A stretch of 64,000 bases of DNA from Naegleria gruberi (GCA_000004985.1 GG738862.1); one strand, 5' to 3'. Shown: positions 11,239 through 63,996, numbered from the stretch's first letter. Program-made: numbers and translations. Notes: generated by a model not told the origin, from the sequence alone.

Positions 11239-12370
11239 TCATGTTAAATCTTCATCATCAATATTTGTTTTCATTGTTTGAGAAAACAATTCGTTATTAA
11301 TTTCAGAACGCAACTTTTTTTGATTAATCTCCCAGATGGAAACATTTTGAGGTGATTCAGTAGTTCTTAAATGTTCTAGGCATGCACTATAACATTTGCA
11401 TAGGCAGGTTGAGTGGAAAATGACTTGGTTGAGGGATATTCTGTCTTTCACTTCATTTAGTAGTTCTATTGCTGTGGAAAGAGTTTGTTTTACAATTTCC
11501 AAAGAATGTGAATTTGTTTCTGCAATGTGAATACAGCAATCAGTGAACTCTGCCAATGGAAATTGAATTGTAGCATCCCTTTCGTCAAATGCTGAAACGA
11601 ACGTAACATTTGCACTGTGCTTCCAGTAAACAAATCTAAACATTTTAAAAGCATGTTCCAGAATGGTTGTCATTTGGGATTCAGCACATATTGAGGGATC
11701 ATATGCCCTTGCTAACATAACTAATTTGTAGAGTAGAGCAGGAATATGCGCAGATTGGGGTTGAAGGTGGTTTAAAGAAATAAATATTGCAATGAAGAGC
11801 TGCCAGAAAAAACTCTTGGGTGAGTGAAGGGAAACCAGTGTTGGAAGATGTCATCTCTTCATATAAACGAGAAATAGTATAAAAAACTGAGGTACTGGGA
11901 TGATTCATCTTGAACTTGTTGAGATTTGAAACAAAATTAGTCCATTCCTTGAAAAACTCTGAAGACTTTTTACCACCAGTATCGTGAAAGAAAGCATTGG
12001 AAGTAATGGCCATTGTGACTTTATCAATAACATCCATAGACAAAGGATTTGGATACGTACAAAGAACAGAGCTCGTAGAAACAATGGCTGATTCGATATT
12101 GTCCAAATTGATGAGTGTTTCAATCTTGGATTTTTCTAATTCGCTTAATGGGAAAAAGATGTCTATTTCTCCCTTGATGTGATCCTTATTTTTGTTGGTA
12201 TTAGTTTTTAATAAATTAATAAATTGGCCACCATCAATAGGAGTTCTGCTTAATATTTGTCCGTCTACCCGGTCCTGTCTCAGCATCATGCTTTCATCAT
12301 CATGGACTAACCGTGGTGGTGCTCTTTCATACATTTTTTTCGATTTATTTAAATCAGCACCATGAAACAA
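11239..12370 (-). CDS. Hypothetical protein, about 380 aa. Two adjacent ORFs (11699-12370 and 11239-11718) in different frames overlap by 20 nt.
   Basis: Both ORFs are long and adjacent on the same strand. No clean GT-AG intron at the junction, so a 1-nt frameshift or an unusual intron is implied. Confidence 0.4.
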
Positions 12371-12487
12371 GTTTCTTCTTTTTCAATGATTTTTAATTTG
12401 GTTGAAATAGTATGTAAATTAAGGACCCTCGGAAATAACAGTATTCATCATGAATTTATTTATTTCATTATCTTATCTCAATTTAGA

Positions 12488-13549
12488 TTACAAATTCAAG
12501 ACAATGCTAACAAGTTTGACAGCTTCCTCTGATTGTGGTAAACTAGTTACCAAAGCATTACTTGGTTGCATTTCATGACTCAAATTATAAACACAACTCA
12601 TTCCACAAAAATCAATTCCACATTCATTTCCAATTCGATTGCAAGCCACAAAATATGGAAATTGCTCTTTGGTAGAAATCATGGGTTGTAATCTATCCAA
12701 CCAATACTCGAGACAATCAGTTGAAAACCAATTACACATGAATACCAATACATCAGATCCAATTTCCTTATGGAAAGTGGTCAATTCTCTCAAATTAATG
12801 TCAGTGCAATAATTTGTTCCATTGTCAATATCCATACAAATTCCAACACCAATTCGAATATTTTCTCTATCCATTCCTGTTGGTTTATCCATGGTAGAAG
12901 TGTCGTGTGTGAGAATGCAACGCTCATTCAAGGAATAATCAAATGCTTTGAATGTATCACCTTCCTCTGCCCACACAGTATCCGCCTCAAAAAGGAAATG
13001 TTTTCTGTAGGTCACATAATTACCATTATGTGAAATCACATACATTGAATTATACAATTTACAATTGGATAGCTCATCCTTTCCATCTTGAATCAATTCC
13101 TTTTCTGGAAATCCCAAAAAAACAGTGCAATTGAATTTCTTGGCAAGTGCAAGTCCATATTCGAAATACTCTCCACCAGGACCAGATCTCTCACAGAATG
13201 GAAAGATATCCTCCCTATCTTTGAAAACATAGCCAGAGAGTGTCATTTCTGGAAAGACGAGAAAATCAATTAATTTCGAATCGAGTGGAGAAAGCATGTG
13301 TGAAATGTGTTCCTTGTTAATGTCTATTTGTTTGAATTTTATATCGCATTGACAAATGGCAACGTTTAGTGTGATTTTGCTGTTGCTGTTGGCGTGATGC
13401 AGGGAAGTATCTGATGCTGACATTTTTTTTATTGTGAACTCCGGTTGAAACTCCTTGTTGGATGCTGAAATTGTGTGGAAAAGCATCCACCAATCTGCAT
13501 TTTCAGGTTTTATCGTATTTTGAATGCTGTGGATTACAGTCATATTCAA
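12488..13549 (-). CDS. Carbon-nitrogen hydrolase (nitrilase-superfamily) protein
   Basis: The E-K-C triad is in the expected context: FLVFPEMTLSGY (Glu), YRKHFLF (Lys), IGVGICMDI (Cys nucleophile). 353 aa. Confidence 0.75.
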   Translation of the reverse strand: MNMTVIHSIQNTIKPENADWWMLFHTISASNKEFQPEFTIKKMSASDTSLHHANSNSKITLNVAICQCDIKFKQIDINKEHISHMLSPLDSKLIDFLVFPEMTLSGYVFKDREDIFPFCERSGPGGEYFEYGLALAKKFNCTVFLGFPEKELIQDGKDELSNCKLYNSMYVISHNGNYVTYRKHFLFEADTVWAEEGDTFKAFDYSLNERCILTHDTSTMDKPTGMDRENIRIGVGICMDIDNGTNYCTDINLRELTTFHKEIGSDVLVFMCNWFSTDCLEYWLDRLQPMISTKEQFPYFVACNRIGNECGIDFCGMSCVYNLSHEMQPSNALVTSLPQSEEAVKLVSIVLNL

Positions 13550-14085
13550 TGTTCAATTTTATGATGATGGAAAAATGTATTTCATTCCGAGAGATATTTC
13601 ATTTGAACTGATAGAAATAAATTGATGGGAGGAGGTGTTGCTGAACAAACCATGTGTCAAATAAGAGAAGAGTCAAGAAGAAGAAATTCTGTCAAGTGAA
13701 CACATGTGTTGTAAACTCATGATGGAACCCACTACGATTTTCTGACATGTCCAAATAATTGTAGTTCAATTACAACAGTATAATGCAATTTACAAAAGTG
13801 AGTGACATACCTACCATTTATCTAATTTGTTGCCAATCATGTCCAAATTTATTCTGTCAATTGTCCAAACCTTACTCAACCACCAATGAGATTGAAGTGT
13901 CATGGACAACGATAGTTCCAGCGTTTGTCCTTGTTCTGCAACATTCTATCCATTACAATATGCAGCTCTGGTGAACTTTCCACTGCGCCATTCTCGTGTC
14001 CATCATCGCTTTCGAATAAAAACTGCAGCAAATCTCACAAAATTTCACAACAAAAAAAAACAAAAACCAATCAATCATAAAAAGA

Positions 14086-14483
14086 TGCCACAACAATTCC
14101 TCATTGTCCTCGAAAAATGTGTCGAACAAGATGACGGCAGCAATGAAATCTGGTCTCAATTCAAGTGCAGCGACTCTGTTTTCGAATATGTTTTTGGAAT
14201 CGAATATCCAACAGGAACCACAGCTGGCGAAAGAATTGCCAGAATTCCAACCAGTGGCGCCAATTTAGATTTGTACGCTGGAATTGAGAGAATTTTCAAT
14301 AAGAATGGACAAGTTGTCTCCAAACTTAAGGGAATCATGACAAATGGTTCTTGGACTTTATTCCAATTGTTGAGTGATAAGGGATTCAAGTTGGCTGAAC
14401 AACGTAATTATGATGTTGTGCAATTTTGTTCAACTCTTAATGGAAGAAAGTTGGTTGAGAGAATTTTTGTTAGAGATTTGTAA
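14086..14483 (+). CDS. Small hypothetical protein (about 132 aa)
   Basis: ATG at 14086 (MPQQFLIVLEK...) inside the longer alt-start ORF 13902-14483. No recognisable domain. Confidence 0.35.
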
Positions 14484-14688
14484 ATCAATGATGCAAAGAA
14501 TAAATAGTTTAGTTTCGAATATTCACTACGAGCCAACGAGCTAAGAAATGTCGTCGAGCTGTGAAATATTTTCGCAATTATTAAAAAATAAAAATGGTGA
14601 GACCTTTCAATACTTTCATTCTCAATTTAGAGACATGAAAAACAAATTTAGTCATTATCCGCCAGTATAAAAGCTAACAAAACAACAT

Positions 14689-15357
14689 GTGCAACAATTA
14701 AACAACAAAACAAATATGACCAGGAACAACAACAATAATAAGAGGAAGAGTAGTGATAGTAGTGGAAAACAGAAGAAGAGGAAGATACAAACTGGGGAAT
14801 TACCATCATCAATACCTTTGGATTCAAGAGATGGAGAAGGAGAAGTGGATTTCATTTTGGAATCAGGAGATTTTGAATATAAACCGGAATATGAGGAGTG
14901 GAATCAAGTACCATCGGAAAAGCAATTAGTTTTTAGTGTTATTTGGGGAGTTTTTGCTAAATGTGCAAGATGTAAAATCAATCAACATTTGGATATGAAT
15001 GCTAGTTGTACAATTAATCATGAAACTCTTGGATCATGTGCACATCAAGTATTTTATTTGATGATGAAGGACTCAAAGGGAGAATTTCGTAGATGGTATC
15101 AGGATGTTTGGTGGAATGGTATTAGAAAAAGAAGCAAATGTATTCAATTTATATTCCGAAATTGTTTACCGAATTTTGATAAATATGATGATTGGGGAAT
15201 GGTATTAATATTGCACACCAACAACACATCTCAATTTGGAACACTCAAATGTAGACAACAAATGAATATTACTAGAATGTCAATAACTTGTAATATTGAA
15301 ACAGGAGAGGTTTGGAGTTCTTTTAGATTCAAGAAGTCAATTGAGAAAGTACGATAA
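14689..15357 (+). CDS. Hypothetical nuclear-type protein with KRK-rich N-terminus (NLS-like) and Cys/His-rich core
   Basis: 222-aa ORF with an ATG start. KRKSSDSSGKQKKRK looks like a bipartite NLS. Confidence 0.4.
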   Translation: MQQLNNKTNMTRNNNNNKRKSSDSSGKQKKRKIQTGELPSSIPLDSRDGEGEVDFILESGDFEYKPEYEEWNQVPSEKQLVFSVIWGVFAKCARCKINQHLDMNASCTINHETLGSCAHQVFYLMMKDSKGEFRRWYQDVWWNGIRKRSKCIQFIFRNCLPNFDKYDDWGMVLILHTNNTSQFGTLKCRQQMNITRMSITCNIETGEVWSSFRFKKSIEKVR

Positions 15358-15389
15358 CAACTTGTCAACCAACAATCAACAAATAAAAT

Positions 15390-17123
15390 ATGTCAGCATC
15401 CTTTAAATCTGACGTTCGTAAAATTGCTTTAACAATACCTCCCGAGTTGAACAATGATTCATTTCCTTCCATCCTACTTTTTTGTGTGTGTCAGCTCATG
15501 CTGAAATGTATTACAATAGAAGTACTCGAAAATATTTTGCTAAGTGCTTTTATTAATATTTATTTACCAATGATGACAAACAATAATGAACGCAACAAAC
15601 CTCTTGGCTGGGAAATTATTGATGATGATGATGTTACATCTCAACATAATTCGGAAGCAAGTATTGACATTGTTTCATTGTTAAGACAAGCAAGTGATGA
15701 AGTACAAAATATTGAACAAAGTGAGGATGTAGAGCATTCCCAACAAACAAGAAAACAATCAACAAGCAAGAAACCAAAAGCACCAAAACAGGTGCCAATT
15801 TTATACACTGATATTTTGGATAATTATACTGATTTTTCGTTTTTAAAATATAAATTAACTGGAGATGCAATTATTGAGGATGGAAGAGTTAATAGAACTA
15901 AGAGCAAATCTAAGCCAGTAGCAATTTGTAATATGGATCATTTCGGATTTTCAAAAAAAGATTTGTTTAGAAAATCTTGTAAACATTTCGTTGAATCTAA
16001 GCCCCATCTAAATTTAATATCAGCTAACAATAATTCTATTAAAAGCATCAAACTATTTAATATTAATGAAATGAAACAGAGTAAGGATATAAAATTTAAA
16101 GATAAAGAAGTTCTAGGAAGATTCTTATTTGGAATTGAATTGGCTGGATTAAATCATGGAATTAATGGATTTGAACATTTTATTCATTTGATTGCATATT
16201 TATTTAAGGATGAATTTATTCATGCCATTGGAACATATGATTACAAGGATAAAATTTTAAAAAAAGTAAAAGAATTACCAATTCAGGAACATTTAGAAAG
16301 TCTTAATGAATATATTGAGATGTATGAAAAAAAAACATTTCCAATAATATCTCCACTGAAATATATTGAAGAAGAGCAACATCAGGATTTGGATAGTGAA
16401 GAAGATCAAAATGAAGAACATGAACATTTTAATGAATTTAATACTGGAGTGGTTTCAACAACAAAGAAACATTCAAAGGAAAAACAACAACCACAAAAAG
16501 AAACAAATATTGAAAATGATGATAATGAATGGCATGATATAGATAGCTCAATGGATGACGATGTTGAAGAGGTAGTTAATATTGTTGAACAATCACGTGT
16601 AGATGTAGTCAATAATGAATCAAGTAAATTTACATTTACTAAAAAAATGGTTAGAGATATTTATGGAAAACAAGAATCCAGAATGTCATGTTTGAATTAT
16701 TCTAAATTTTCCAAAATAACTGAATCAGACAACACCAAAGACTCAGTTTTAAGAAAAGCAACAGCTATTTTGAATATACAAACTCTTTTAAAATTTGGAG
16801 TTCAGGTTGATGAAGAAAATTCAATAGTTGTCGCGAGCATGCTCAAGGTGTTGGAAGAATCAATAAGGTACCACATTAATTGGATTAAGGAAGCCGAAAA
16901 AGATGAAACTTTGAGCAAAAAATTGAAAAAAGAGGATTTGGAAATAGATTTAAAAGTATTTTATTTCAAATTAAATCTAGATGAAGCCTCAGGTACTGTT
17001 ACATTCGCTATTCAATTATTGAATGGAAAATCTCATGGAAATCCCGAATCGAGATTAAATGTGACAACACTAGCTGCCTGGCGTGGAGGCGAAGAGAAAA
17101 TGAGATCGAAAGTAGTAATGTAA
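15390..17123 (+). CDS. Hypothetical acidic protein (577 aa)
   Basis: Long intact ORF with an ATG start. Asp/Glu-rich internal segment. No recognisable domain. Confidence 0.5.
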   Translation: MSASFKSDVRKIALTIPPELNNDSFPSILLFCVCQLMLKCITIEVLENILLSAFINIYLPMMTNNNERNKPLGWEIIDDDDVTSQHNSEASIDIVSLLRQASDEVQNIEQSEDVEHSQQTRKQSTSKKPKAPKQVPILYTDILDNYTDFSFLKYKLTGDAIIEDGRVNRTKSKSKPVAICNMDHFGFSKKDLFRKSCKHFVESKPHLNLISANNNSIKSIKLFNINEMKQSKDIKFKDKEVLGRFLFGIELAGLNHGINGFEHFIHLIAYLFKDEFIHAIGTYDYKDKILKKVKELPIQEHLESLNEYIEMYEKKTFPIISPLKYIEEEQHQDLDSEEDQNEEHEHFNEFNTGVVSTTKKHSKEKQQPQKETNIENDDNEWHDIDSSMDDDVEEVVNIVEQSRVDVVNNESSKFTFTKKMVRDIYGKQESRMSCLNYSKFSKITESDNTKDSVLRKATAILNIQTLLKFGVQVDEENSIVVASMLKVLEESIRYHINWIKEAEKDETLSKKLKKEDLEIDLKVFYFKLNLDEASGTVTFAIQLLNGKSHGNPESRLNVTTLAAWRGGEEKMRSKVVM

Positions 17124-17135
17124 TATTTTAAATTT

Positions 17136-18526
17136 ATGATTGAGGCTACTAGAGCTAACGGAGTAATTGTTGATGGGAAAACATACAAAGTTGACTATTT
17201 AATGACAACTGATTTATTATCCTTGAAAAATATTAGTAGATTAATGTTTAAAAGAATGTGCCCATATTGTTTGAGTCTTTCAACATTATGTGATAGAAGA
17301 CATGTATTGAGAGCAAAAGAAGAACTTTCATGTATTTTATCTATTCCTCCCTCAAAGATAGTAATTTGTTTCCTCCATTTAAGGGAACGAATCATGGAAA
17401 GACTGTTAATAGATTCAATATTGACAATGAGTAGTACGAGAAAATTTTTGAAGACGTTGAAATCAATTAAGAATTTTCAGAACTTTTCATTGCGTCAACT
17501 TAACACCAAAAAAGGAATATTATATAGATGTTACTTGATAGGAAATATGGTTAAATCATTGTTAAAAAGTCTTATTGTTATCAAGAAATTTATCAATCCA
17601 ATGCAATATGAATTGATGACCAAATTTAAACGAGTAGTGGATTTGTTGAACGTAAAGGAACGAATGGATGATGAACAGTATGAAACTTTTATGAAAGCTC
17701 TCAAAGATATGCAACAATCATATTGCAGATTATATGTTAATGGTCCTAAAAGTTGGTACATGCACATATTGTTTCATCATGTTCCAAGTTTATTGAAAAT
17801 GTACGGCTCCTTAAAGCCATTTGAAACTCAGGGTTTTGAAGGTAAGTAATCATTAACTTTAATATTAATTGTAAACAGGAGCTCACATTGACGATAAAGA
17901 TCTATTGGAAAAAACCTCTCATAATGGAGGAAGAAAATCATATTTGCACTTTATGTTTCCAAACTTTAAAGATATAATGTTAATCCAATTTATTTTACCT
18001 AGATTAAGGAAATTGTTAATTTGTAACGAGTATGGTTTTAAATTTGACTGTAGTAAAAGAGATTCTAAATTGGTAAGGCAATTTCTTGATGAGCCCTATC
18101 CTGATATACTTTGTGAATATTCTCATTTATTGGAAAGAAATGATGATCAAATGTGTGATGACGAATGTTGTCAAAATAATTGATTCACATAGAATTATTA
18201 AAGCTCATAGGGATAATCTTGATGTAGGAGTTAGTATATTGTTTTATTTCGGATCGTATCTTGAAAATGAAGGTTATTTGGAGTTAACTGATAAAAATTG
18301 CAAAATATATTGCAGACCTGGAGATGTAGTGATATTTAAAGGAAATATTTATAAACACAAAGTTAATAATATTTCAACAGGATTTAGGATAGGAATTGTT
18401 TATTTCACACATAAGGGAAACAAGTCAAAACCATACTATGAAACAACGCAACGAGCCTCTTTGAAGCAACACAGAGAGTTGTTTCCTAACGAGAAGCCAA
18501 AGAAAAAGAAGAAGACAAATAAATAA
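17136..18526 (+). CDS. TET/JBP-family 2OG-Fe(II) dioxygenase (Naegleria Tet-like 5-methylcytosine oxygenase). Exon 1 is 17136-17841, a 37-nt intron follows at 17842-17878, exon 2 runs to ~18160, then an apparent frameshift leads into the catalytic frame, which ends at 18526.
   Basis: Catalytic-frame sequence IDSHRIIKAHRDNLDVGVSILFYFGSYLENEGYLELTDKNCKIYCRPGDVVIFKGNIYKHKVNNISTGFRIGIVYFTHKGNKSKPYYETT contains the HxD motif (HRD), a distal His (YKH) and an Arg (GFRIG) of the double-stranded beta-helix fold. It strongly resembles the published Naegleria gruberi Tet1 core as I remember it. The intron is GTAAGT...ACAG and splicing keeps the frame. Confidence 0.7.
17842..17878 (+). other. Spliceosomal intron (37 nt) in the Tet-like gene
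   Basis: gtaagtaatcattaactttaatattaattgtaaacag. Splicing joins ...ETQGFEG to AHIDDKDLLEKTSHNGG in frame. Confidence 0.7.
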
Positions 18527-18683
18527 ACGAACTTCATTCCTATCAATGTCAAAAATTTATTTGTTGTTTACATTCTAAAGAGAACATCCCTTCCAAAAAA
18601 AATTTACCTTCTACTTGTATTCTAATGTACAGCTCGACGACCGCTTGGCTCGTAGTGTTGTGTTTTGAAAACTTGATCACAAT

Positions 18684-20606
18684 TTGGATAAAAAAATGTC
18701 ATTAGAGGATGATGGAGAGAAGCAGATTTATTCTGTGTTTAATTTACCGGAAGTGGTTTCTAATGTTTTATTAAATTTATCTGCAAGGGAAAGAGCAAAG
18801 TTTCGTCTCATCAATTCGAATTGTGATCAAGTATACAAAATTGAAGAGGAATTATTATTTATTAAATTATGGACAAGATATAGAGATGGACATTCGTTCG
18901 GATATCAAGAAGAAACACTTTCTAATGAAGAATTGGAGCATTATCAAGAAATTTATGGAAATTTACAATTTCATTTGCGTGTTTGGTTGACTAAATGTTC
19001 AAATGGAAGATATGAGAGGGAAAATTCATTGTTATTGAGTATTTGCAATATTGGCGATTGGAGATTTATTCAAGATTGTCCATTTGTGAATGAAGATTTT
19101 CTTGAAGAATATTTAGATTCGAATTTGGTAAAGAGTTTAGTTTGTGTTCACATGGCGAAAGAAGTTTCGTATTTTATGGACATGAGAAGTGGAATATTCT
19201 ACCAAAATGTTAATATTAAATCTACTTTGAATTGGAAAAGACTTGGAACTATTCAAGAATGGTTAGAAAATATGCCCTTCGATATATTAGGAAAATTATC
19301 AATGACTAATAAGGGAAGAAAAGTTAATTATCTTGCAAAACTTATGAAAGCAATGGAAGGAAATAATATTGAGGCGATTATTTCTTTATTGAAACAGAAT
19401 TTATGTTTATTTCCCTATTTAAAGGATCAATTTAAAAGAAGGGAAGAAATTTTACAATTTTTATTGGAAAATAACGTTTATGGAACATCAATTATTGGTA
19501 TACACAGTTATTTACCTGCATTTATACCGTATGATTTGAGATGTGATCCAGATTTTGTATTGAAATATTGTAAAATTATTGATTTTTATTATTATTTACC
19601 AACTAAATTAAGAAATGATACTGAATTGATCATTAAAATATTGGAAATTCACAAAGATGTCACTATTCATCTCAGTTCAGTACCAAAAGAATTATTTTCT
19701 GATATTAGGGTTTTGAAAATATTAAGAAAACCAATTATGGAAGAATTACAATACAAAGATTTCCCACATTTGGAAATTGACACTATTGAAAAATTAATGA
19801 TATTTGGAGATTGTAATATTCTATATCCATACATATCTGACAAGTTACTCAATGATCAAGATTTTATCAGGAAATTTTTAATTGCTCAATATGGAGAGGA
19901 GTATAATGTAAATCCTACAAATTTGGAATCTGTTAAACATCCATTACAAATGGTGTTTATTGACCAATCATTGAGAAGTAACAAATCAATCATGGAAAAC
20001 CTCTCACAATACCATCTTTTATATTTATGTGGCGACTTGAAAAGAGATTTTGACATTTTATCAAAAATTGAAAAAACAAGTATTCTAAAGAAGGTCAATC
20101 CACTTTTAACATTGGAAGATTATCTTGAAATATTTAGAAAATTCATACAAAGATCTCCAACGAAAACTTTTACATTTTACTATTATATTTCAAATTTACC
20201 AACAAAATTATTCAATTGTAAAGAGGTTGTTCTGACAACAGCAAAATTATACAAAAAGTATCTTGTGGTTTTAAGTAAGATTGGAAGTGAATTATGTAAG
20301 GATGTGCAGTTTTGGAGGGAATTGTTAGAGGAAACTTCGTATGTTGATATTGGAAGTTTCGTCCCACATGAAATTCGAAACGATCCAAAAGTTTTCCTCA
20401 AACAATTGAAATATCCTGAATTGCAAATGTGTTCAAAAGAGTTGTTGGAAAATGTTGAATTTGTGGAGGAGTTTTTGGTTGCCAATAATCATTTCGAATA
20501 CATTTACCTTTCACCTAAAATGAGATCAAATAAGGAATTATTCATGACATTAAGTGAGAAAGATATGGAACTATTTCAATTTGCATCCCCTGATTTATTT
20601 GCCTAA
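18684..20606 (+). CDS. F-box-like / DUF4116-repeat protein (640 aa)
   Basis: N-terminal IYSVFNLPEVVSNVLLNLSARERAKFRLINSNC looks F-box-like. C-terminal repeats LRCDPDFVLKY, LRNDTELIIKIL and IRNDPKVFLKQL resemble DUF4116 units, as in the ORF at 1379. Confidence 0.5.
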   Translation: MDKKMSLEDDGEKQIYSVFNLPEVVSNVLLNLSARERAKFRLINSNCDQVYKIEEELLFIKLWTRYRDGHSFGYQEETLSNEELEHYQEIYGNLQFHLRVWLTKCSNGRYERENSLLLSICNIGDWRFIQDCPFVNEDFLEEYLDSNLVKSLVCVHMAKEVSYFMDMRSGIFYQNVNIKSTLNWKRLGTIQEWLENMPFDILGKLSMTNKGRKVNYLAKLMKAMEGNNIEAIISLLKQNLCLFPYLKDQFKRREEILQFLLENNVYGTSIIGIHSYLPAFIPYDLRCDPDFVLKYCKIIDFYYYLPTKLRNDTELIIKILEIHKDVTIHLSSVPKELFSDIRVLKILRKPIMEELQYKDFPHLEIDTIEKLMIFGDCNILYPYISDKLLNDQDFIRKFLIAQYGEEYNVNPTNLESVKHPLQMVFIDQSLRSNKSIMENLSQYHLLYLCGDLKRDFDILSKIEKTSILKKVNPLLTLEDYLEIFRKFIQRSPTKTFTFYYYISNLPTKLFNCKEVVLTTAKLYKKYLVVLSKIGSELCKDVQFWRELLEETSYVDIGSFVPHEIRNDPKVFLKQLKYPELQMCSKELLENVEFVEEFLVANNHFEYIYLSPKMRSNKELFMTLSEKDMELFQFASPDLFA

Positions 20607-20678
20607 ATTTATTGTTGAAAAGTGAATCTGGTGTCATTCAAATTATTAATTGAAGAGTGAAAGATTAAGGAATTGAAT

Positions 20679-20797
20679 GGCTACGGCCATATCACGATGA
20701 ATGCACCTCATCCCGTCCGATTTGAGAAGTTAAGCATCGTCGAGCCACATCAGTACTGAGGTTGGAGACAACTTGGGAACCTGTGGTGCTGTAGTCT
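20679..20797 (+). rRNA. 5S ribosomal RNA gene (copy 2)
   Basis: Identical to copy 1 across ~118 nt. The upstream box ttgaagagtgaaagattaaggaattgaa and a downstream T6 run are conserved. Confidence 0.85.
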
Positions 20798-22175: not shown

Positions 22176-24035
22176 ATGTATCAAAGGAAAGCATTGATAA
22201 CTAACCAATCAATCCTTAGTGTCAGTTTGCTGCTAGTTTGTTTACTGGCATTAAGTATTTTGCATGTTCCATCATCTGTTTTGTGTGCTTCCTCAAGTAG
22301 CTCATCAAGTAATGGAACTGTGAGAGAATGGCTCAATGACTTGAATGATCAAGCTGCTAATCTACAATCCTCTGCTTCAAGATTGCAAAAAGCTATTGCA
22401 ATTTTGAGTATGGCCAACAATACAGCATCCATCATCAGCATGAGAAATGCCCAGCTAAAGAAGATTAATTCTGCACTTGACATGATTAATCAAGAAATTT
22501 CAATCTTTAAAATCACCTGCAGTAATAATGATGGTCCTGATTGTAGCATTCCAGTATGTGTATCAAAGTGTTTGAACTGCTCTGGACCTGGAAAGTGTGG
22601 TGTTTGTTCTGGTAATTTTGATGGAAGTGATTGCTCTGCATGTAAATCTGGATGGAGTAATTACAATAGCAATTGTACTGTTCCAATTTGTGATTCTAAA
22701 TGTATTATTTGTCAATCACCTGGAAACTGTACCAATTGCTCTGGTAATTATGATGGTTCTGTATGTTCATCATGCAAATCAGGATGGAATGGTTCTAATT
22801 GTTCAACACCTATTTGTGATTCTAAATGTGTAACTTGTCTCTCACCAGGAAACTGTACTAATTGCTCTGGTAATTGGACTGGATCTGCCTGTTCTATTCC
22901 TGTATGTGATTCCAAATGTTTGAATTGTTCAGCACCTAGTGTTTGTTCTCAATGTTCTGGTAATTGGGTTGGTTTAACTTGTTCAGTATGTCAGACAGGA
23001 TGGACAGGAGCAACTTGTTCAACACCAGTATGTGATTCCAAATGTACAACCTGTGCATCTCCTGGTGTTTGCTCAGTTTGTTCTGGTAATTGGCAAGGAT
23101 CTACATGTTCCACATGTAAGACAGGATGGACAGGAGCAACTTGTTCAACACCAATTTGTGATTCCAAATGTACAACCTGTGCATCTCCTGGTCAGTGTTC
23201 TGTGTGTTCTGCTGGTTGGACAGGAGCAACTTGTTCAACACCAGTTTGTGATTCTAAATGTACAACATGTGCATCTCCTGGTCAGTGTTCTGTGTGTTCT
23301 TCTGGTTGGACAGGAGCAACTTGTTCAACACCAGTTTGTGATTCCAAATGTACAACATGTACATCTCCTGGTGTTTGCTCAGTTTGTTCTGGTAACTGGG
23401 ATGGTCCTTCATGTTCTGTGTGTAAAACTAGTTGGACAGGTTCATCTTGCAATCTCGCTCTTGGTGATTTTGCAAACTCACCATTATTCTCCGCTAGTTA
23501 TGGAGCTAGGTTGATCACATCTATTTTGAGTGGCGTTATGAAGAAAACACCAACCAGACTCTATAGAGCCATGGCAACTTATGGTATGGGAATTGGTTAT
23601 GGCTATCATCCTTACGCTTTCCATAATGCCTGCAATGGTTATTCTTCAACAGTTACAATTGTGAAAACATCAGCAGGGGCTGTATTTGGTGCCTATCTAA
23701 GCATTCCATGGGAAGATTATAATGCTGGGGATACAACAACTCGTAAGACATTTTCAGATCCTAATGCATTTCTATTTAGTATGGTAACATCGAGCGGTGT
23801 GGAGAGATTTGTGAAATTGGGTTATTCTGGAGCTGTTGGACAAACTGTTACATACAATTTTATAACACATCCATTGTTTGGAGCGTCGGATATTTATTTG
23901 GGACAAGGGATGAGCTATCAGCCAGCACCTGATGCTTATTCGAAACCAGCAACTTTTCAACCTTTGGAACCTAACTGGAGTTATGGAACTACATATTCAT
24001 TCACTGTTTCTGATTATGAAGTGTATAGTATTTAA
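22176..24035 (+). CDS. Secreted Cys-rich (EGF/laminin-EGF-like repeat) protein with C-terminal TLDc domain
   Basis: Signal peptide (LLLVCLLALSILHV). At least 10 repeats of CxSKCxxCxSPGxCxxCSGNWxGxxCSxCKxGWxGxxCSTPxCD. The C-terminal region LYRAMATYG...AFHNACNG...VTIVKTSAGAVFGAYLSIPW...AFLFSM...SFTVSDYEVYSI fits the TLDc pattern. Confidence 0.75.
   Translation: MYQRKALITNQSILSVSLLLVCLLALSILHVPSSVLCASSSSSSSNGTVREWLNDLNDQAANLQSSASRLQKAIAILSMANNTASIISMRNAQLKKINSALDMINQEISIFKITCSNNDGPDCSIPVCVSKCLNCSGPGKCGVCSGNFDGSDCSACKSGWSNYNSNCTVPICDSKCIICQSPGNCTNCSGNYDGSVCSSCKSGWNGSNCSTPICDSKCVTCLSPGNCTNCSGNWTGSACSIPVCDSKCLNCSAPSVCSQCSGNWVGLTCSVCQTGWTGATCSTPVCDSKCTTCASPGVCSVCSGNWQGSTCSTCKTGWTGATCSTPICDSKCTTCASPGQCSVCSAGWTGATCSTPVCDSKCTTCASPGQCSVCSSGWTGATCSTPVCDSKCTTCTSPGVCSVCSGNWDGPSCSVCKTSWTGSSCNLALGDFANSPLFSASYGARLITSILSGVMKKTPTRLYRAMATYGMGIGYGYHPYAFHNACNGYSSTVTIVKTSAGAVFGAYLSIPWEDYNAGDTTTRKTFSDPNAFLFSMVTSSGVERFVKLGYSGAVGQTVTYNFITHPLFGASDIYLGQGMSYQPAPDAYSKPATFQPLEPNWSYGTTYSFTVSDYEVYSI
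23030..23400 (+). repeat. Near-identical in-frame 87-nt tandem repeats inside the Cys-rich gene
   Basis: gcaacttgttcaacaccagtttgtgattc(c/t)aaatgtacaac(a/c)tgtgcatctcctggtcagtgttctgtgtgttct repeats about four times, encoding ATCSTPVCDSKCTTCASPGQCSVCS(A/S)GWTG. Confidence 0.8.
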
Positions 24036-46160: not shown

Positions 46161-47306
46161 TTATTGAAGAGAAAAAACTTCATAATCTTCAATTTGGAAA
46201 TATTGTGATCCTGTCAAGTATGATTGTGCGGTTGAACCTGGTGTCAATATTCCATCACCATAGCTGTGACCTAGATTAGCATAATTGTAATTATCTGCAA
46301 TATGTAAATCATGTCCTGCTCCAAATGCTGGTCCATATTGAGGATTGTGATAAATTGAGTATTGAGAAGAGTTGTCTCCAATCTTGAAGTAATATCCATA
46401 TTGTTGAGTCAATTTTGTAAATCTTTCAACTTTGTCAGCTGAAACTAAACTAAATAGAAATGCTGATTTGTCTGGAAAGAATGCTCCAGTAGTTGAGGTC
46501 CATGAAATACTTGTATAACCTCCAAATACAGCACCTGTTTTTGCCTTGACAATTACAACGGTTGAACCTTTGTTATCACATTTCGAATGGAATGCTTGAG
46601 CTGAGAAACCATCTCTTGATGCCTTAAATATTAATTTGAGTCCATTTGGTGTTGGAATGCCATTCAATATTTCTGTTGCTAATCTTTCTGATTGTTTTTG
46701 AGATAATAGTGTTGAATCTTTCAATCCACTTATTTTGGATTCGAGTTCTTTCTTTACTTGTTCTTCCTTATTCTTCTTTTCTTGTTCTTCTTTCAATTTC
46801 TTTTGATATTTGAGTTTCTTCTCTTGTTCTTCTTTCATCTTTGTTTCCAGTTCCTGCGAGGATTCAGATTTGAGCTGTTTGTTATCTTTGAGTTTATTCT
46901 TTTGGTTTTCTTTAGATTTAGATTCATGTCTTTCATGTAATGGTCTTGTTTGATATAATAGTTCAAGATTTTCAATTTCAATTTCCAAAATAGATTTCAA
47001 TTCATTCAATTCATTTCTTGTTGTTGATTTATCAGATGTGTAAGATTTAAACAAAGATGATTTCTTTCCACTCACTTCAAATGCATCCAATAAAATGTTA
47101 ATTTCCTTCAATGCATTTGATGTGTCTTTCAAATATTGCTTTTTATCTTTCAATACTTTGAACACATCTCTTGTTGAATATGTTGATGATGAAGAATTGT
47201 TGCTTGTTCCTTTACTAAGTAATGTTACTGTTGATGATTGTGCATGTGTAGCCATTACTAATGCACTCATCAATATTATTAAGGCAAATAAACAACAACG
47301 CAACAC
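46161..47306 (-). CDS. Secreted coiled-coil protein with C-terminal TLDc domain
   Basis: Signal peptide, K/E-rich coiled coil, then LKLIFKASRDGFSAQAFHSKCDNKGSTVVIVKAKTGAVFGGYTSISW...AFLFSL...YFQIEDYEVFSL, a canonical TLDc. Confidence 0.75.
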   Translation of the reverse strand: MLRCCLFALIILMSALVMATHAQSSTVTLLSKGTSNNSSSSTYSTRDVFKVLKDKKQYLKDTSNALKEINILLDAFEVSGKKSSLFKSYTSDKSTTRNELNELKSILEIEIENLELLYQTRPLHERHESKSKENQKNKLKDNKQLKSESSQELETKMKEEQEKKLKYQKKLKEEQEKKNKEEQVKKELESKISGLKDSTLLSQKQSERLATEILNGIPTPNGLKLIFKASRDGFSAQAFHSKCDNKGSTVVIVKAKTGAVFGGYTSISWTSTTGAFFPDKSAFLFSLVSADKVERFTKLTQQYGYYFKIGDNSSQYSIYHNPQYGPAFGAGHDLHIADNYNYANLGHSYGDGILTPGSTAQSYLTGSQYFQIEDYEVFSLQ

Positions 47307-50315: not shown

Positions 50316-51536
50316 ATGTATTACAATAACTGTTTTAGTCATCCACACAATAATCCCTTGGAAAAGCAAACAAAAAAAATGTATCAATATAAAGCATTGC
50401 TTAGTGTCACTTTGCTGATAGTTTGTTTACTGGCATTAAGTATTTTGCATGTTCCATCATCTGTTTTGTGTGCTTCCTCAAGTAGCTCATCAAGTAATGG
50501 AACTGTGAGAGAATGGCTGAGTGACTTGAATGATCAAGCTGCTAACTTACAATCCTCTGCTTCTAGATTGCAAAAAGCTATTGCAATTTTGAGTATGGCC
50601 AACAATACAGCATCCATCATCAGCATGAGGAGTGCTCAACTCAAGAAGATTAATTATGCTCTTGACATGATTAATCAAGAAATTTCAATCTTTAAAACCA
50701 CATGCAGTAATAATGATGGTCCTGATTGTACCATTCCTATATGTGTATCAAAGTGTTTGAATTGTACTGCACCTGGCATATGCTCACAATGTTATGGCAA
50801 TTGGAATGGTACTGACTGTTCCTATTGTAAGATGGGATGGAAAGGCATTGATTGTAACACTTCTCAATGTGATTCAAAGTGTTTGATATGCACTGGACCC
50901 TCTCAATGTTCAGTTTGTTCTGGTAACTGGGATGGTGCTAACTGTACTACTTGTAAGGCAGGATGGGCAGGAACTAATTGTGCTACCCAAGTTCCTGTGG
51001 GAGATTTATCATCTTCTTCCATATTGACACCAGTTAATGCCACAAGATTTGTTTCTGAAATAGTTAATAGTGTAAGATCCAAACCAATTACACTATTGTA
51101 TAGATCTTCAAGAGATAGTTATAATCCTTCAATCTTCCATAGTTTATGTGATAATAAGGGGCCAACTATTACAATTGTTAAGGCTAATACGGGAGCCATA
51201 TTTGGAGGTTATACTTCAATTAGTTGGAATTCAGGTGGTGTCAATTTTATAGTGACCCAAATGCTTTCTTATTTAGTATTATTTCTTCAACAGGAGAGCA
51301 AAGATTTACAAAGATACTCCAACAACCACCATACGCCTATAGTATTTATACATCTTACCACCATTTCCCTGTATTTGGTGCCGGGAATGATCTTTATATT
51401 GGCACAAGTTATTGCAGCACTACCCCTTCCTCATACATATATCAATCCAGAGCTTATTTCGCTTGTCTCCCAAATGTTAATTGTGATACTTGGGTTCTTT
51501 CAGATTTCGAGGTTTACTCGTTGTAAGCAAATTTAA
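50316..51536 (+). pseudogene. Paralog of the 22176 Cys-rich/TLDc gene, disrupted by a 1-nt deletion in a T homopolymer (~51243). The TLDc C-terminal part continues in frame +2 (51224-51526).
   Basis: N-terminal 120 aa are near-identical to the 22176 gene. The frame breaks between ISWNSGGVNF and (Y)SDPNAFLFSI...SDFEVYSL; restoring one T in caattttatag gives GGVNFYSDPNAF. This could be a sequencing error rather than a true pseudogene. Confidence 0.6.
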
Positions 51537-52079
51537 TCTGACGAAAACAACATGTGGATACTCAATACTGTTGAAACCTTTCAAATAGGGACTGTGGCAA
51601 GATAAATGATCTGGTGGTTCCAAAACACTGCTGTGATAGCAGCATTCCCAATATTTCTTATTGTGCCATCCAAAAGAGATAATTTACTAGTAAATGATTG
51701 CATATCCTTTCACTTCAGCCTCACAAACAACTCTACAGTATCCAAAGGAAGCCTTCTCGTTTTTCCTTTCTATTCTTGATATCCACCAGTGGCTGTATCC
51801 TTGTTCATTTCGGTTTTTCCTTCCATGAATTGTTTAATTAAGTCCACTGTTTGATTTTTCCTTCCATGTATTGTTTAATGAAGTCCACTGTTATTGATTC
51901 TTGTTGATGGTTATTCTGTTATTATTGTTGATGATGATGCAGTTTGTTGCCAAGAGTCAGAATTTTATGAATCATCAGACTAGGATGATACCTCCTTTCT
52001 CTTTCTTGCCATTTTTTTTAAACATTAAATTAAACTTTGTTACAAAGGCGGGAACAAGTTCATAGTCTTACAAAAAAAA

Positions 52080-53229
52080 ATGCCTTCAAGTGATTATGTT
52101 GTTCCCTATGGTTTTGATTTTGGAAGTTACATGACACAGGCTGGAAATACCGATCACTACAATTCTTCAGCAGATTTTCGAACAATCATGGGATTTCCAA
52201 AGGAAAAACCAATCATGGCCTTATTATTGGATTCGGAGAGAAATTATGGATCAAGTAGAATGAAGGAAGGCTGGATTGGAGATGAAGTATTTTGGAAGAG
52301 TGGAATTGCTCGTTTGGAATATCCTATTCGGAGAGGAATTGTTAAGGATTGGAATTTATTTGAGTTGTTTCTAGAGTTTGCCTTTTCGAATGCTTGTAGA
52401 ATATCGAGTGCTGAACATCCAATAATTGTTACTGATTCTCCTTTTGTTCCGAATCAGCAGATCGAAAATGACTGAATTGATGTTTGAGAGATTTAATGTT
52501 CCTGCTTTTGCAATGATCAATTGTGCAATGGCCAGTTGTATGCATTATGGAAGAACAACTGGAACAATTGTAACTTCTGGAGAGGGAAAAACTTTCGTAC
52601 AATCATTTTATGAAGGCTATTTGTTGAAGGAATCTATTGTAAAGATGGAAGTTGGAGGTTGGGATATTACTGAAAATCTTCAAAGAATGCTCAATCAAAA
52701 AGGACATTCTTTCAAGACTTCAAGTGACTTTGAAGTTGTGAGATTGATTAAGGAAAAGCTATCCTTTTTAAAGATGAGTGAAGCTGAAATGATGGTAGAG
52801 AAAGAATATGAGCTACCAGATGGAAATATTATCAATTTGGGAGAGGAATTGCACGAATGTGTCGAGCCATTATTTAACCCACATTTGGCTGGACTTGATT
52901 GTTTGGGCGTTCATGAGCTTGTTACCAAATCAATTCAAGATTGTACTATTGATGTGAGGATGGATCTGTATAGAAATATATTACCTGCTGGCGGTAATAC
53001 AATGATTTCTAATTTTACTGGTCGATTGAAATGTGAAGTTGAAGCATTGGCTCCACCTAATGCCAAAGTCAAAGTTATAGATGATGCATCGAGAAAGTAT
53101 TCGGCTTGGAATGGAATGGCAACTCTTTCTAACATGTCAAGCTTTCAAGATAAGTGGTACACAAAAGAATACTATGAGGAGAATGGGTCGTCTTCTTTAC
53201 TGAGGAGTTGTGTTAATTTTTCTGGGTAG
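52080..53229 (+). CDS. Divergent actin / actin-related protein, with an apparent 1-nt insertion frameshift at ~52455
   Basis: Aligns along the full length of actin: GDEVFWKSGIARLEYPIRRGIVKDWNLFE matches [44 protein letters not shown] matches KMTQIMFETFNVPAM, and YELPDGNIINLGEE matches YELPDGQVITIGNE. The phosphate-1 loop is degenerate (VVPYGFDFGS where actin has VVDNGSG). The frame switches between PFVPNQ and [10 protein letters not shown]. Confidence 0.8.
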
Positions 53230-55005: not shown

Positions 55006-55293
55006 TTTGCACAGTTTTCGAGTTTTTTGATTTTTTTTTTATTTTTTTTAAATTTGTTTTTGGCGCGAGATTCTTGTGAGAATTAATTTTTTTGAGATTT
55101 GTGATGAATTTGATAAAATTGGAAGGTTGTGAGAGTGGATTGTTTTAAGATATTTGTTAAGCTTTGATGTTCTTTGGATTGTTTTCATCAAGATAAACAC
55201 TTTTGAAAAGAAACTGAAAGAGAACAGAAAAGATTAAGGATGACAAGAGATGAAAGTACTTTAAAAAGAGTGAGAAACAAATGATTCTTACAT

Positions 55294-56741: not shown

Positions 56742-57064
56742 TATGACAAAATTATTCGAATAAAACTTGCAAACTGCTTTTGATCTATTGATATTTTTTT
56801 GATTGAATGAAACTGCTGTTTCTGGTGGAGTTTAAAGAAATTTGAAATGTTACAAAGTTCAGAGATAAAAGGAGCGCTGATGTTAATCATGACGTGGAGA
56901 TTTGTTGTAAACAATTCAATATCTATGTAAAGCATTATACAATGAACCAAATTTTCATTTCCAATTTTATATTAGAATAAGCCAAGAATTTTGTTGTAAA
57001 TTTCCAATTTATTTTGTGAATATGTTACATTGAAACAGTAAACTGTGCGCTCAAAATATAGAGC

Positions 57065-59461: not shown

Positions 59462-61679
59462 ATGAAGATTCCCCTGCCGACACAAAGTTATGAACAACAA
59501 GAACATTTAGTTAGTACTGACGAGGAAGAGGAAGATGATTTTTCATCATCTCTTTCGTATTGTTCCTCTTCGTATGTGATGGACCAAATTATGATGAAAA
59601 GGAAGAATTCGTTTAGTGGTGGTAGTTATGGAGCAGCACATCAACAATTGTATGGTAATGAAGAGGAGGAAAGGAATCATGTCATTTGGTGTGATGTGTG
59701 TAAACAGGAAGGATTTGAAGAAGCTGCCACTCATTACTGTTCAACATGTTTCAAGGAAAATCAGAAAGATAAGAGTAATCGAGTGATTGTTGTTCAACAA
59801 AATGATGAAAGGGAGAGTTTGGAAGAAGAGGAAGACGAATCGAATGTAACAATATGTCACTATTGTCAATATCATGCCAATAGACATAATAGGAGAGATC
59901 CACTGCATCAAATAGTGTCCATTAGACAGGAAAGGATATTTGCATCATCGAGCTTGTTACGTTCTGGTTCATTCATGTCGAGTGCTTCATCTTTTGATTC
60001 GAACATGTCCAATTCATCACCAATTCCTTTTTTCACAACTGGTAGTACATCAACTGGACCACTGTTCAATTATGGTTGTAATGGTAATAACAGCAGTAGT
60101 AATAACATGTTGGCGAGTAGTAATATTGTCAGATATTGTTTTAAACATGAAGAGGCCATTCCACTTAATACCTACTGCAGAACTTGTGAATTGGTAATTT
60201 GTTCTCAGTGTGCCTTGTCCAAAGCACATAAAGGACACTTGATTGAGTTAATCAAGGATGTAGAAAATAGTGAAAGAATGCAATTGGGTGAACATGTTAA
60301 GGTTCTTAAACAATCATTCGAAGAATGGGAAGAGGAGTTCAGTGTCCATGATGAAGACTTGGAGGAAGAACTGACACTAATTGATGAACGAGAAGAATCA
60401 CTCACATATCAGATTAATTTAGCATTTGATGAAATGAAGGAATGTCTAGAAAAGAGAAGAAATGTTCTCATAGAACAAGTGGAACAATCATCTCATGAAA
60501 ACAAACAATCTGTTCATAACATTCTCAAAATGAAGAAGGAATCCAAAGAGTTACTTGGAGAGTTTGACAATTTGGAAGAGATGAGTGGATTTGATGTAAT
60601 TGATAAAAAGTTGAATAGACTCAATCTTATCATTGTACTATACGAAAAGATGCAAAAAGAATTCAAGACGAGAAAACTCTCTGACCTTCATAGAATATCT
60701 CTGGACAAGTTTGCAAGTAGGAAGAATATTATTCAACATCACATTGATGAGCTAGGTCAAGTTGTCAAGAAGACAAATGATGATTCTGGTCCATCATCGA
60801 CTTCTGTACCTATCAATTTCAAACATATAGAAACTATTGGATCAGCTAGCAATTCAAATAATAAGCATGTGCAGTTTAGCTTTCCATCCGATGTTAAAAT
60901 TTCTCATCAACATGCATGTATTGTTGTAGCAGATTTTGGCAACAAGAAGATTCGTGTTTTGGATTTGATAACTAGGCAGTTCAAGTACGATATTGATACT
61001 GCGTCAGCTCCAAGAAACATTTCAATAGATCACACAGATGACGACTCTATTATTGTATCATGTGCAGATCACTGTGTTTACAAGTATTCATTACTTAATC
61101 AGGGAAAGTCAATAGTTTGGAGGAGCGGATCGCCAAATGAGAGTGGAAATTCTCAACATCTTTTCAAATATCCAAGAGCAAGTATTGTGGATATAGATGG
61201 CAATGTATACGTGTGTGATCATGGTAATCACCGAATCAAGGTATTAACATCTAGCAATGGCCAATTTGTGAAAATTATTGGAATAGATCAAAATTCAATT
61301 TAAACGGCCTTGGGGTGTTTGTATTGATAAGGATGGAAATTTAGTTATTAGTGAGAAGAAGAATAATAGAATACAAAGAATATCAAAGGAAGGAGATATT
61401 TCACTCTTTATGTTAGGAAAGAAAGGATCATCTCAATACGAATTTAACAAACCGAGAGGTATATTAATTGACAATCACACTGAGCATATGTTTATTTGCG
61501 ATGGAGCTAATCATAGAATACAGGTATTTTCCAAAGCAGGAAAATTAATCAAAACCTTTGGTTCTGAAGGTTCCAAATCAAGCCAATTATTTCAACCTCA
61601 TAGTTTATGTTTTGATTCAGTGAGTGGTCAATTATTTGTAGCGGATTGTGGAAATCACCGAGTACAGATATTCCAATAA
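59462..61679 (+). CDS. TRIM-like protein with B-box zinc fingers, coiled coil and C-terminal NHL repeats. The frame is disrupted near 61285-61300.
   Basis: B-boxes CDVCKQEG...HYCSTCF and CFKHEEAIPLNTYCRTCELVICSQCALSKAHKGH, then a long coiled coil. NHL blades FSFPSDVKISHQHACIVVADFGNKKIRVLD, YVCDHGNHRIKVL, RPWGVCIDKDGNLVISEKKNNRIQ, FNKPRGILID...ICDGANHRIQVF and VADCGNHRVQIF. The stop at 61301 is bypassed by a 1-nt frame change into ORF 61410-61679. Confidence 0.7.
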
Positions 61680-61732
61680 ACTTTTAATCGCTTTCACTGC
61701 TGCTTGAATTGTCTTGCTTAGAGCTTAGAAAC

Positions 61733-63996
61733 TTAATTGCCTTGTTTGGTGAATTCCATGTAACCCAATCTTTTTCCTTGTGAATTGAATGGAAAGGAGT
61801 TCTTTTTTGAACTATCGTGTTCGTAAAGTGTAGAATCTGAAAAGTTAGCAGTAAATTTCTTTGTTCCGACTGTAAGTTCCATATATCTTGGATACCTGTC
61901 TCTATGGTACTTTCGTTTTCCTCTCAGCAACTTGGCGCTTGTTTTGGCGTCGAAAATTATAAACTCCTTTCCCGAATTATAAACTGTGACCTTATATTTT
62001 GAAGCTTTCTTTTGCTTAAATGGAGCGTAGGCATGTTCAAGGAAATTATTCTTTGTAGGATTGAAAGAGCCAATATGTTGTTGTCCTGGATCTATTTGAA
62101 TGAATTCAATTTGTGGAGAGAGGTTACTATTCATCTTTTTTGGTCTCAGAATTTCCTGAATGTCATTAAGGGAGTACTCAAAGAATGTTGATAATTTGAG
62201 GTTATTGGTAATGTATTTTACACGTTGATCTATTTTTCTAAATCCCTCACTTGCAGTGTCATATGCAAAAGTAATGTCCACTTGTGAATAGTCATGCTTC
62301 TTTGATGGTTCTGTTAGTGATAAATCTCTTTCTGTACTCTCTATTGTTCTTCTTCCTTTAATCGACACAAGAGCGTCAAATTCGTGAAGTTTTTTAAACG
62401 AGTTGATAATCATTAAAATTCTTGCAAGACCATTAAATTGAGTGATGGTTGGCTTTAGATCACCTAATAAAATAGGATTTACCACCTTCTTAATATCGTA
62501 GCCACAAATACCTATCCTAAACCCTCTCATTGCATACTTTATCAATCTAGTTTCAAAAGTTGTTGATTGTCTATCCACATCCACAATATTACATCTAGTT
62601 CTTATTGCTTCTCTAGCTCTTGGTACGCAAAATACTTGATTTCCATCAAAACCAATGCTGCAACAGGCAATATCAAATCCCATCAACACTTCAGCCTTTT
62701 GTTTATCAAAAGATTTGTAAATTCTCAAAATTACTTAAACTTACTGGTGATTTGTAAATTCTCAATACTATTTGTACAGATTTTTTGTGATATCCTGAAC
62801 ATTTGAAGGTGATAGCATGTTGTGTTCTGATAATTAGTAATTCTCCATCCTTAGTATTTTTCTTGAAAGTGTTAAAAATACTAACAATCTTCTTTTCAGC
62901 ATCTGTTTCTGAAAGACCATACAAAAATAAATCAATATCACTCTTTCTCCAAGGCTTATTTTGGAAATACTGTCTAATGGTATATTCTTCTGATGAAGTA
63001 TTTTGACTCGGGCTAAATTTAGTATGCATATCATTTTCTTCATCTGTCACGTAATCATCATCTGATGAATCATTAGTATTTGGAGCTTCTCCATCACTTG
63101 CATCGTTATTACCCCAAAATTTGGAAAGACTTTTTTGTTGTTTCCATAGCTCAGTATTATATAACCTGCCACGTGAAAATTGTGTATCGCTACGAACTTT
63201 AACTTTCAAACAGGAAGCTAAAACTGATCCTCCAGCCACAAAAACATTAGACCAATCCATCTCCTTAAATATTCCATCTGTGAAAATGTCAAATTGTTTC
63301 AGAAATTGTTCTCTTGACTCTACAAGTTCAGGAGGTGTAGGAATTGTTAAGGATGACTTTTTGGCTAGCTCAAAAGCTTCACAAGGATCCTCAAAGTTGA
63401 AAAGTAACTTGCTTGGTTCCAAAACTGGATCTTTGCACCTGAAAGATTTCCTAATACTGTTGCTAGATCCAAAAATATTAATCAAGTTGATATATGGATC
63501 ATTGAGGATTACATTTTCTCTATCAGCAACAAATAAATTTCTCAAAAAGTCCTCATATCTTTTGTATTTCAAATTCTTTTCTCCGATTTCTTCTATTGGA
63601 TATCTACAAATATCAAAATATTCTAGAATACCGTTCAATCTGAAATATTTAGCCTCACTATAGACTTGTTTCTTTGTTTCTGTTAGAGTTGGGAAATTAT
63701 CAATCTTTCCATTCAAAAGATATTCATGAATAAATTTGAAAATTTCTGGATCTCTATCAATAAATATTTCGATTCAATTTGGTAGAATTCTTTACAATGG
63801 TATAGAGCAAACTGTCAGGTTCTCTCAAAAGCTTGGATTTGGTTAAACTAAACTTGACTCCTCTAACATTGAAAGTGATATCCGTCATGTTCTTGGACAT
63901 TTCCATTTCTTTCAAGTCTTCGAATTCCCTGGTTAGTTTTTCTTTTTGGTCCTTGATATATTTCTCAACTTTTTCCTTTTCTTCAAGAGTGATCAT
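61733..63996 (-). CDS. KCTD-type BTB/T1 domain protein fused to a large domain of unknown function. There is a 49-nt intron at 62696-62744 and an apparent 1-nt frame disruption at ~63735-63750 inside the BTB domain.
   Basis: ITFNVRGVKFSLTKSKLLREPDSLLYTIV...(frame change)...FIDRDPEIFKFIHEYLLNGKI is the T1 BTB signature (I.lNVGG..F.t...TL...YFIDRDp..F..IL.flR.G). A GTAAGT donor sits exactly where ORFs 62706-63716 and 61733-62728 change frame. GGS...SDIDLF motifs in the downstream domain may indicate a nucleotidyltransferase-like fold; I have low confidence in that. Confidence 0.55.

Follow-up and report, generated by a model that had tools for sequence, protein, structure and literature searches.

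Does the genome of Naegleria gruberi contain genes whose reading frame is shifted during expression, or is it the deposited sequence of these genes that is damaged? The question is raised by a stretch of 64,000 nucleotides (GCA_000004985.1, GG738862.1; hereafter the window) of the 2010 N. gruberi NEG-M reference, a gene-dense region of approximately 33% GC with long open reading frames (ORFs). The original prediction, made from this sequence, listed eight sites at which otherwise conserved genes change frame by a single nucleotide, and attributed them to assembly errors or to pseudogenes accumulating in the strain. Six of the eight breaks are real in the sequence; the change in a 7TM-RGS gene is fitted by an 82-nt intron and a Tet-like ORF lacks Tet homology upstream of its supposed break. 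At these breaks the deposited NEG-M sequence carries small lesions; they are not signals which are specially decoded by the cell. Five of them are isolated and affect an actin-like gene, a B-box/NHL gene, a KCTD/BTB gene, a TLDc gene and an orphan gene at position 11771, and one lies in the repeat array of a PPR gene.

The orthologous locus of a related strain, to which the original prediction had pointed as a check, was available in megahit contigs of one European Nucleotide Archive (ENA) metagenome (ERZ929261, run ERR1078381), which were found by exact-protein and cluster look-ups. Outside the PPR repeat array the contigs L001, L002, L003, L005, L007 and L008 exhibited 97–99% identity to the window. 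They hold intergenic DNA as well as an intron of the KCTD gene and are therefore genomic DNA, derived from a closely related strain (the sister strain). The exact-protein look-ups returned no NEG-M data; the matches were ERR1078381 contigs and one unrelated bacterial Logan contig, to which the Logan member P0307 had led. Literature searches gave no specific account of frameshifts or sequencing errors in N. gruberi or of PRJEB11402.

At all four breaks covered by these contigs (L002, L003 and L005) the sister-strain ORF is uninterrupted. Compared with the sister strain, the reference lacks 2 nt in the actin-like gene, the 11771 orphan gene and the KCTD gene, and contains one additional nucleotide in the NHL gene. 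Each break that can be compared occurs in the reference alone and not in this strain, which is 98–99% identical, and the two strains have no shift site in common.

The actin-like gene (NAEGRDRAFT_88141; 52080–53229, plus strand) passes from frame 0 to frame +1 at 52458–52459, and its two ORFs (52080–52475 and 52426–53229) overlap in different frames. Where the window reads CAGC--AGATCG, the sister strain reads CAGCAAAGATCG; two nucleotides (AA in the sense strand) are absent from the window. The orthologue on L002 encodes an intact protein of 383 amino acids (P0032), and the repaired window protein is 99% identical to NAEGRDRAFT_88141. The Joint Genome Institute (JGI) model for this gene, P0001 (XP_002678373), passes over the break with a 10-nt pseudo-intron (52449–52458), which leaves a gap of four residues. 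The intergenic DNA upstream of the gene (window ~51850–51990, L002 1–140) is unrelated between the strains; a larger indel or a rearrangement could account for this, as could a chimeric contig.

In the B-box/NHL gene (59462–61679, plus strand) a run of four A residues at 61287–61290 faces a run of three in the sister strain (GATC-AAATTC on L005), resulting in a +1 shift. The sister-strain ORF is intact (738 amino acids, P0303), whereas the JGI model XP_002678374 (P0184) ends at the premature stop (GIDQNSI*) after 613 residues. A 5,659-bp contig from a different metagenome (L004, ENA ERZ27315067), presumably from a different Naegleria-like heterolobosean, encodes an intact B-box/NHL protein of 641 amino acids (P0116) which is 59% identical to that of the window. 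This homologue is likewise continuous across the site.

The KCTD/BTB gene (minus strand, from 61733 to beyond 64000) lacks 2 nt at 63770–63771, not near 63740 as predicted, and shifts by +1. Its sense strand is AATC--GAAATA in the window and AATCCTGAAATA in the sister strain. The deleted CT (TCCTGA to TCGA) lies outside any repeat and immediately precedes IFIDRD, so that the break splits the (Y/I)FIDRD motif, as had been predicted. On L005 the two additional bases are present, and at least 706 amino acids are encoded without interruption through the site. At the other end of this gene a 2-nt indel between the strains falls exactly on the stop codon (window 61733) and gives the sister-strain protein a different, extended C-terminus. 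The orphan gene (~11239–12280, minus strand), which had been listed with doubt at ~11710, is indeed broken, at 11770–11771. The window lacks AA in the sense strand (TTTAAA--CCACC, sister strain TTTAAAAACCACC), which causes a +1 shift, and the orthologue on L003 encodes an intact protein of 341 amino acids (P0052).

No sister-strain contig covering the TLDc gene (50316/50379–51526, plus strand) was found, and its break was inferred from paralogues. The window contains three TLDc copies, and the other two (22176–24035 and 46161–47306) show no gap when aligned across the break, from GGYTSISW to FYSDPNAFLFS. At 51245–51248 the broken copy has four T residues where five would keep the frame, a shift of −1. 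The JGI model XP_002678372 (P0187) continues in the wrong frame and carries approximately 70 out-of-frame residues at its C-terminus. Together, the JGI/NCBI models P0001, P0184 and P0187 reproduce the broken frames of the window exactly.

The isolated breaks thus comprise −2 (AA) twice, +1 (A), −2 (CT) and, judged from the paralogues, −1 (T). Where the sister strain allows the event to be resolved, three cases out of four are losses of 2 nt, and the description of the breaks as single-nucleotide changes does not hold. The idea that every +1 site reflects a deletion of AA from the sense strand was refuted by the NHL (+1 A) and KCTD (−2 CT) genes. Homopolymer runs at the break sites are 1–4 nt long, and changes of ±1 in a homopolymer account for two of the five isolated events (A3 to A4 in NHL, T5 to T4 in TLDc). 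Errors of a long-read or homopolymer-prone platform, as proposed in the original prediction, do not explain this pattern, since the NEG-M assembly was produced by Sanger technology (PMC9928731, Table 1) and the NHL and TLDc genes alone fit such errors. Both broader readings offered there, assembly error and strain pseudogenes, survive.

The ratio of non-synonymous to synonymous differences per site (pN/pS) was determined. Pooled over the broken genes it amounted to ~0.28 (29 non-synonymous differences at 5248 sites, 26 synonymous differences at 1313 sites), and therefore the lesions are recent or artefactual. Individually, the isolated broken genes showed values of 0.26–0.36 with one lesion each and did not approach 1, which rules them out as old, relaxed pseudogenes. 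Two intact genes gave 0 and 0.66, and the broken genes fall within this range. When the differences in the NHL gene were polarised with P0116 as outgroup, no excess of derived changes was observed in the reference.

The background of indels between the strains was surveyed in approximately 17 kb of contig outside the PPR array. The other coding indels comprised 15, 3 and 3 nt, all multiples of three, and the 2 nt at the KCTD stop codon. Indels in non-coding DNA were frequent and often 2–3 nt long. For example, the Cu-oxidase gene differed by 7 synonymous and no non-synonymous changes and by no indel, and 1 kb of non-coding DNA flanking it contained 8 indels.

The PPR gene is a case of its own. 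Its 5′ tract (8229–9445, plus strand) within a DYW-type PPR gene (7245–10828), putatively encoding an RNA-editing factor, consists of tandem 306-nt (102-codon) units, as seen from Pfam matches to PPR, E and DYW, a three-frame view and an alignment of the repeat units. The predicted junction at 8868, which lies before the start given for the whole set of breaks (11699), is a real break (CTCA-TTGATG, compared with CTCAGTTGATG in adjacent units). It is not an isolated one, being among at least six lesions within 1.2 kb. Two of these are in-frame TAG stops (~8229 and ~8568); 1-nt deletions occur at ~8463 and ~8868 and a 1-nt insertion at ~8668. Of these lesions, one 1-nt deletion and one TAG stop fall in the unit at 8275, and a +1/−1 pair, whose −1 is the 8868 site, in the unit at 8580. 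Moreover, the segment at 8230–8275 is 2 nt short and a chimeric out-of-frame unit is located at ~9440. In the sister strain the counterpart (L003 3023–4756) of the array region (window 8275–9508) belongs to a tract that is open for at least 577 amino acids and ~0.9 kb shorter, corresponding to about three 306-nt units, which may be a repeat collapse in the short-read assembly. The sister-strain gene has a 1-nt deletion of its own at window position 10614, which truncates the DYW domain. With at least six lesions, among them two nonsense codons, a chimeric unit and other damage in the sister strain, the 5′ tract, unlike the isolated broken genes, resembles a multi-lesion pseudogene or a decaying, tandemly amplified repeat array. 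It differs from such pseudogenes in that the 3′ PPR-E-DYW part (9419–10828) has kept an uninterrupted ORF including the complete DYW domain, from which a shorter protein might still be made. The PPR gene is genuinely decaying, and differently in each strain.

The most likely origin of the breaks in the actin-like, NHL, KCTD, TLDc and 11771 orphan genes, all five of them isolated, is consensus error in an unfinished Sanger draft of a heterozygous genome, for which we consider the chance about even. Such errors would originate from low-coverage read tails and from haplotypes collapsed at indel sites. Five isolated lesions in ~44 kb of coding sequence correspond to ~1e-4 per base, or about one per 10 kb. 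Unfinished 8x Sanger drafts have an accuracy of the order of 1e-4 per base, and the observed rate, being close to this value, supports consensus error. If the lesions were real, five of the ~31 genes in the window (~15%) would be broken, which is high for a viable clone and also counts for consensus error. Further similarities to indel errors of Sanger whole-genome shotgun drafts are that isolated changes of 1–2 nt, private to one assembly, interrupt constrained genes and yield truncated or patched models. BUSCO analysis has reported 7 fragmented and 39 missing genes for N. gruberi compared with 6 and 32 in its relatives (PMC6125883). These counts were judged insensitive as a test of random error, as gene finders patch shifts of 1–2 nt.

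Several observations weigh against consensus error and speak for a different origin, namely that NEG-M really possesses the isolated indels, as recent, strain-private, probably heterozygous loss-of-function alleles in dispensable genes of expanded families, caught by the haploid consensus. We regard this as a serious possibility, albeit not as the probable one. Base-calling errors usually concern single bases in homopolymers. The three 2-nt deletions among the four resolved events, of which that in the KCTD gene lies in non-repetitive sequence, depart from what is known of Sanger drafts. The spectrum of −2, −2, +1, −2 and −1 resembles natural variation as seen in the non-coding indels between the strains, and not a pure ±1 homopolymer pattern. 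The isolated broken genes with recognisable domains all belong to families that have further copies in the window or have been reported as expanded in N. gruberi (actin-like, NHL, KCTD/BTB and TLDc with its three copies in the window), the remaining one being an orphan; up to 64 actin genes have been reported for N. gruberi (PMC9928731). Null alleles are most tolerable in multi-copy families, and this argues against error. Naegleria has been described as a heterozygous diploid with mainly clonal reproduction (PMC9928731), a setting which suits such alleles. The asymmetry of a broken reference and an intact sister strain is expected when a metagenome consensus reports majority alleles, and young null alleles would show a low pN/pS, too. 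Finally, the neighbouring PPR array proves that genes at this locus do decay. NEG-M itself has been described as polyploid.

The likeness to young unitary pseudogenes of expanded families, that is, a single frameshift, an intact nearest orthologue, a low pN/pS and many paralogues, is confronted with a density of ~15% of genes, which is much above expectation. Five of ~31 genes in a haploid consensus would amount to thousands genome-wide, far above the known loss-of-function loads of other outbred eukaryotes. According to our own estimate, ordinary mutation rates over decades of laboratory culture would be insufficient, and no independent NEG-M sequence supports any of the alleles. The view that the lesions are real, and that in NEG-M, a clonal and heterozygous laboratory strain, roughly every sixth gene of the region has a recent frameshift allele, is put forward with some reserve and remains a minority expectation. 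If true, it would imply thousands of such alleles genome-wide and an unusually high tolerated null load concentrated in expanded families.

Much less probable than either origin is that short or non-canonical spliceosomal introns, so far overlooked, account for all frame changes; we consider this improbable to a high degree. Canonical introns of very small size that change the frame do occur in the window, namely one of 37 nt (17842–17878), one of 44 nt (56453–56410, minus strand), which restores a VWA beta-strand and the MIDAS motif LVIVLDISGSM, one of 56 nt (39945–39890, minus strand) and one of 49 nt in the KCTD gene. The donors of the 37-, 44- and 56-nt introns are GTATGT or GTAAGT. The canonical KCTD intron (62696–62744, minus strand; GTAAGT...AAAAG) is identical in sequence in the sister strain, where the ORFs (332 and 706 amino acids) are split at the same place. 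For the frame change at 62720 a 37-nt tandem duplication had also been considered, and was dropped in favour of this intron. The frame change at this intron is conserved, and therefore shared frame changes mark introns and reference-private ones mark lesions. The KCTD intron also holds a 17-nt copy (TTGAGAATTTACAAATC) of exon sequence located 37 nt upstream, which might go back to a tandem duplication that gave rise to the intron, or might be fortuitous.

The 7TM-RGS gene (43175–45350, minus strand) probably belongs to the same group. Enumeration of in-phase GT-AG introns revealed a candidate canonical intron of 82 nt (44640–44721, minus strand; GTATGA...CTAAC...AACAG) whose donor is of the same type as those of the other short introns, and splicing it yields a complete ORF of 697 amino acids from ATG to stop. 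Judged from these sequence features, the +1 change of this gene is probably due to an ordinary short canonical intron. In a scan of JGI metagenomes for an RGS relative a 27% match located away from the junction was the sole result. The statement that no GT-AG intron explains the breaks has to be withdrawn for this gene and stands for the actin-like, NHL, KCTD (63770), 11771 and TLDc sites, none of which has the features of an intron. At the first four of these the sister strain, differing by 1–2 nt, reads through in one frame. The interval in which the shift must occur measures just 14–47 nt in the NHL, KCTD and actin-like genes, and all in-phase GT-AG candidates there would delete conserved motifs (VYVCDHGNHRI, FIDRDP). 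The gapless alignment of the TLDc paralogues leaves no room for an intron in the fifth.

Recoding, by which programmed +1/−1 frameshifting, transcriptional slippage or insertional RNA editing would render the genes functional as encoded, is effectively excluded: despite the +1 direction common to several breaks, the purifying selection on the flanking coding sequence and the two missing dinucleotides that are AA in the sense strand, the DNA of the closest relative encodes the "missing" bases at all four sites, and the absence of any shift site conserved between the strains argues against it. The lesions are heterogeneous and the sites (CAGCAGATC, GATCAAAATTC, AATCGAAAT, TTTAAACCACC and GTCAATTTTATAG) have no motif in common; neither a slippery sequence X XXY YYZ for −1 nor an AAA-TAA/TAG-like signal for +1 was shared by them. 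A 0-frame stop directly at the point of the shift, such as Euplotes sites have, is absent from the isolated breaks, although in the KCTD and NHL genes one follows within a few codons, and homopolymers of 1–4 nt are too short for slippage, for which approximately 7 nt or more would be expected. Many genes needing +1 or −1 within conserved coding sequence are also found in the programmed +1 ribosomal frameshifting of Euplotes ciliates and in endosymbionts, where transcriptional slippage rescues frameshifted genes. The window differs from these systems by the lack of a conserved site, of the AAA-TAA/TAG motif and of long poly(A/T), and by a nearest relative that needs no shift.

The remaining site of the original list led to a different kind of element. 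The Tet-like "break" (18053–18183, plus strand) concerns an ORF (18077–18526) without a start codon whose similarity to NgTet1 (PDB 4LT5/5CG8) is restricted to residues 226–325, the last 100 residues, and begins at ~18170. The frame upstream showed no Tet similarity and no match in the PDB. The claim that the flanking frames are parts of the same protein, interrupted within a conserved motif, fails for this ORF. The sole in-phase intron candidate (18053–18137, 85 nt) has a weak donor (GTAAAAG...GGAAAG). We infer that what was taken for a break is part of an incomplete Tet ORF carried by a copy of a transposon.

The ORF lies within an insertion of 4,134 bp (14524–18657, plus strand) that is absent from the sister-strain contig L007, in which positions 1–453 correspond to window 14071–14523 and positions 453–2491 to window 18658–20701, so that 14523 is joined directly to 18658. 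The insertion opens with CACTACGAGCCAA and closes with the exact reverse complement of this sequence, forming perfect 13-nt terminal inverted repeats; at up to two mismatches this 13-mer has no other match in the window. TT flanks the insertion on both sides, whereas the empty site reads TTT and not TT. In addition to the Tet-like ORFs the insertion contains ORFs of 222 (14689–15357), 577 and 237 amino acids. The latter two, with CPYC and HILFHH motifs, share one frame and are parted by a single TAA (17121–17123). The 37-nt intron described above links these putative transposase ORFs to the Tet-like ORFs. A segment of 30–33 nt, GTA...TTGAG, spans the TAA and may represent an in-phase intron of very small size; otherwise the transposon copy is disabled. 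The putative transposase had no match in Pfam or the PDB.

Transposons of the EnSpm/CACTA-Mirage-Chapaev-Transib clade that carry TET/JBP genes have been described in fungi; they are characterised by terminal inverted repeats of the type 5′-CA...TG-3′, target site duplications of 2–5 bp, presence/absence polymorphism, a TET/JBP gene and a transposase in which C(2)C and H(3-4)H motifs occur (PMC12730594). With its inverted repeats, TT flanks, empty site, CPYC and HILFHH motifs and 100 C-terminal residues that resemble NgTet1 the 4.1-kb segment looks like a TET/JBP-carrying CACTA-type DNA transposon that is polymorphic between Naegleria strains. As the putative transposase has no Pfam or PDB match, its membership of the described clade is tentative, and the empty site has TTT. 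This transposon is a more interesting lead than the frame breaks.

The frame breaks themselves are an ordinary phenomenon of a known kind, lesions in a draft reference, and the result removes the suggestion of frameshift recoding in Naegleria. N. gruberi NEG-M is the model genome for the Heterolobosea, and the value of the finding is mainly practical. At least three public gene models of the window (XP_002678374, XP_002678372 and XP_002678373) are wrong due to the breaks, and the contigs of the sister strain allow their correction. Should the rate observed in the window hold genome-wide, more than 10% of the N. gruberi models may be affected, which bears on gene-family counts and orthology calls.

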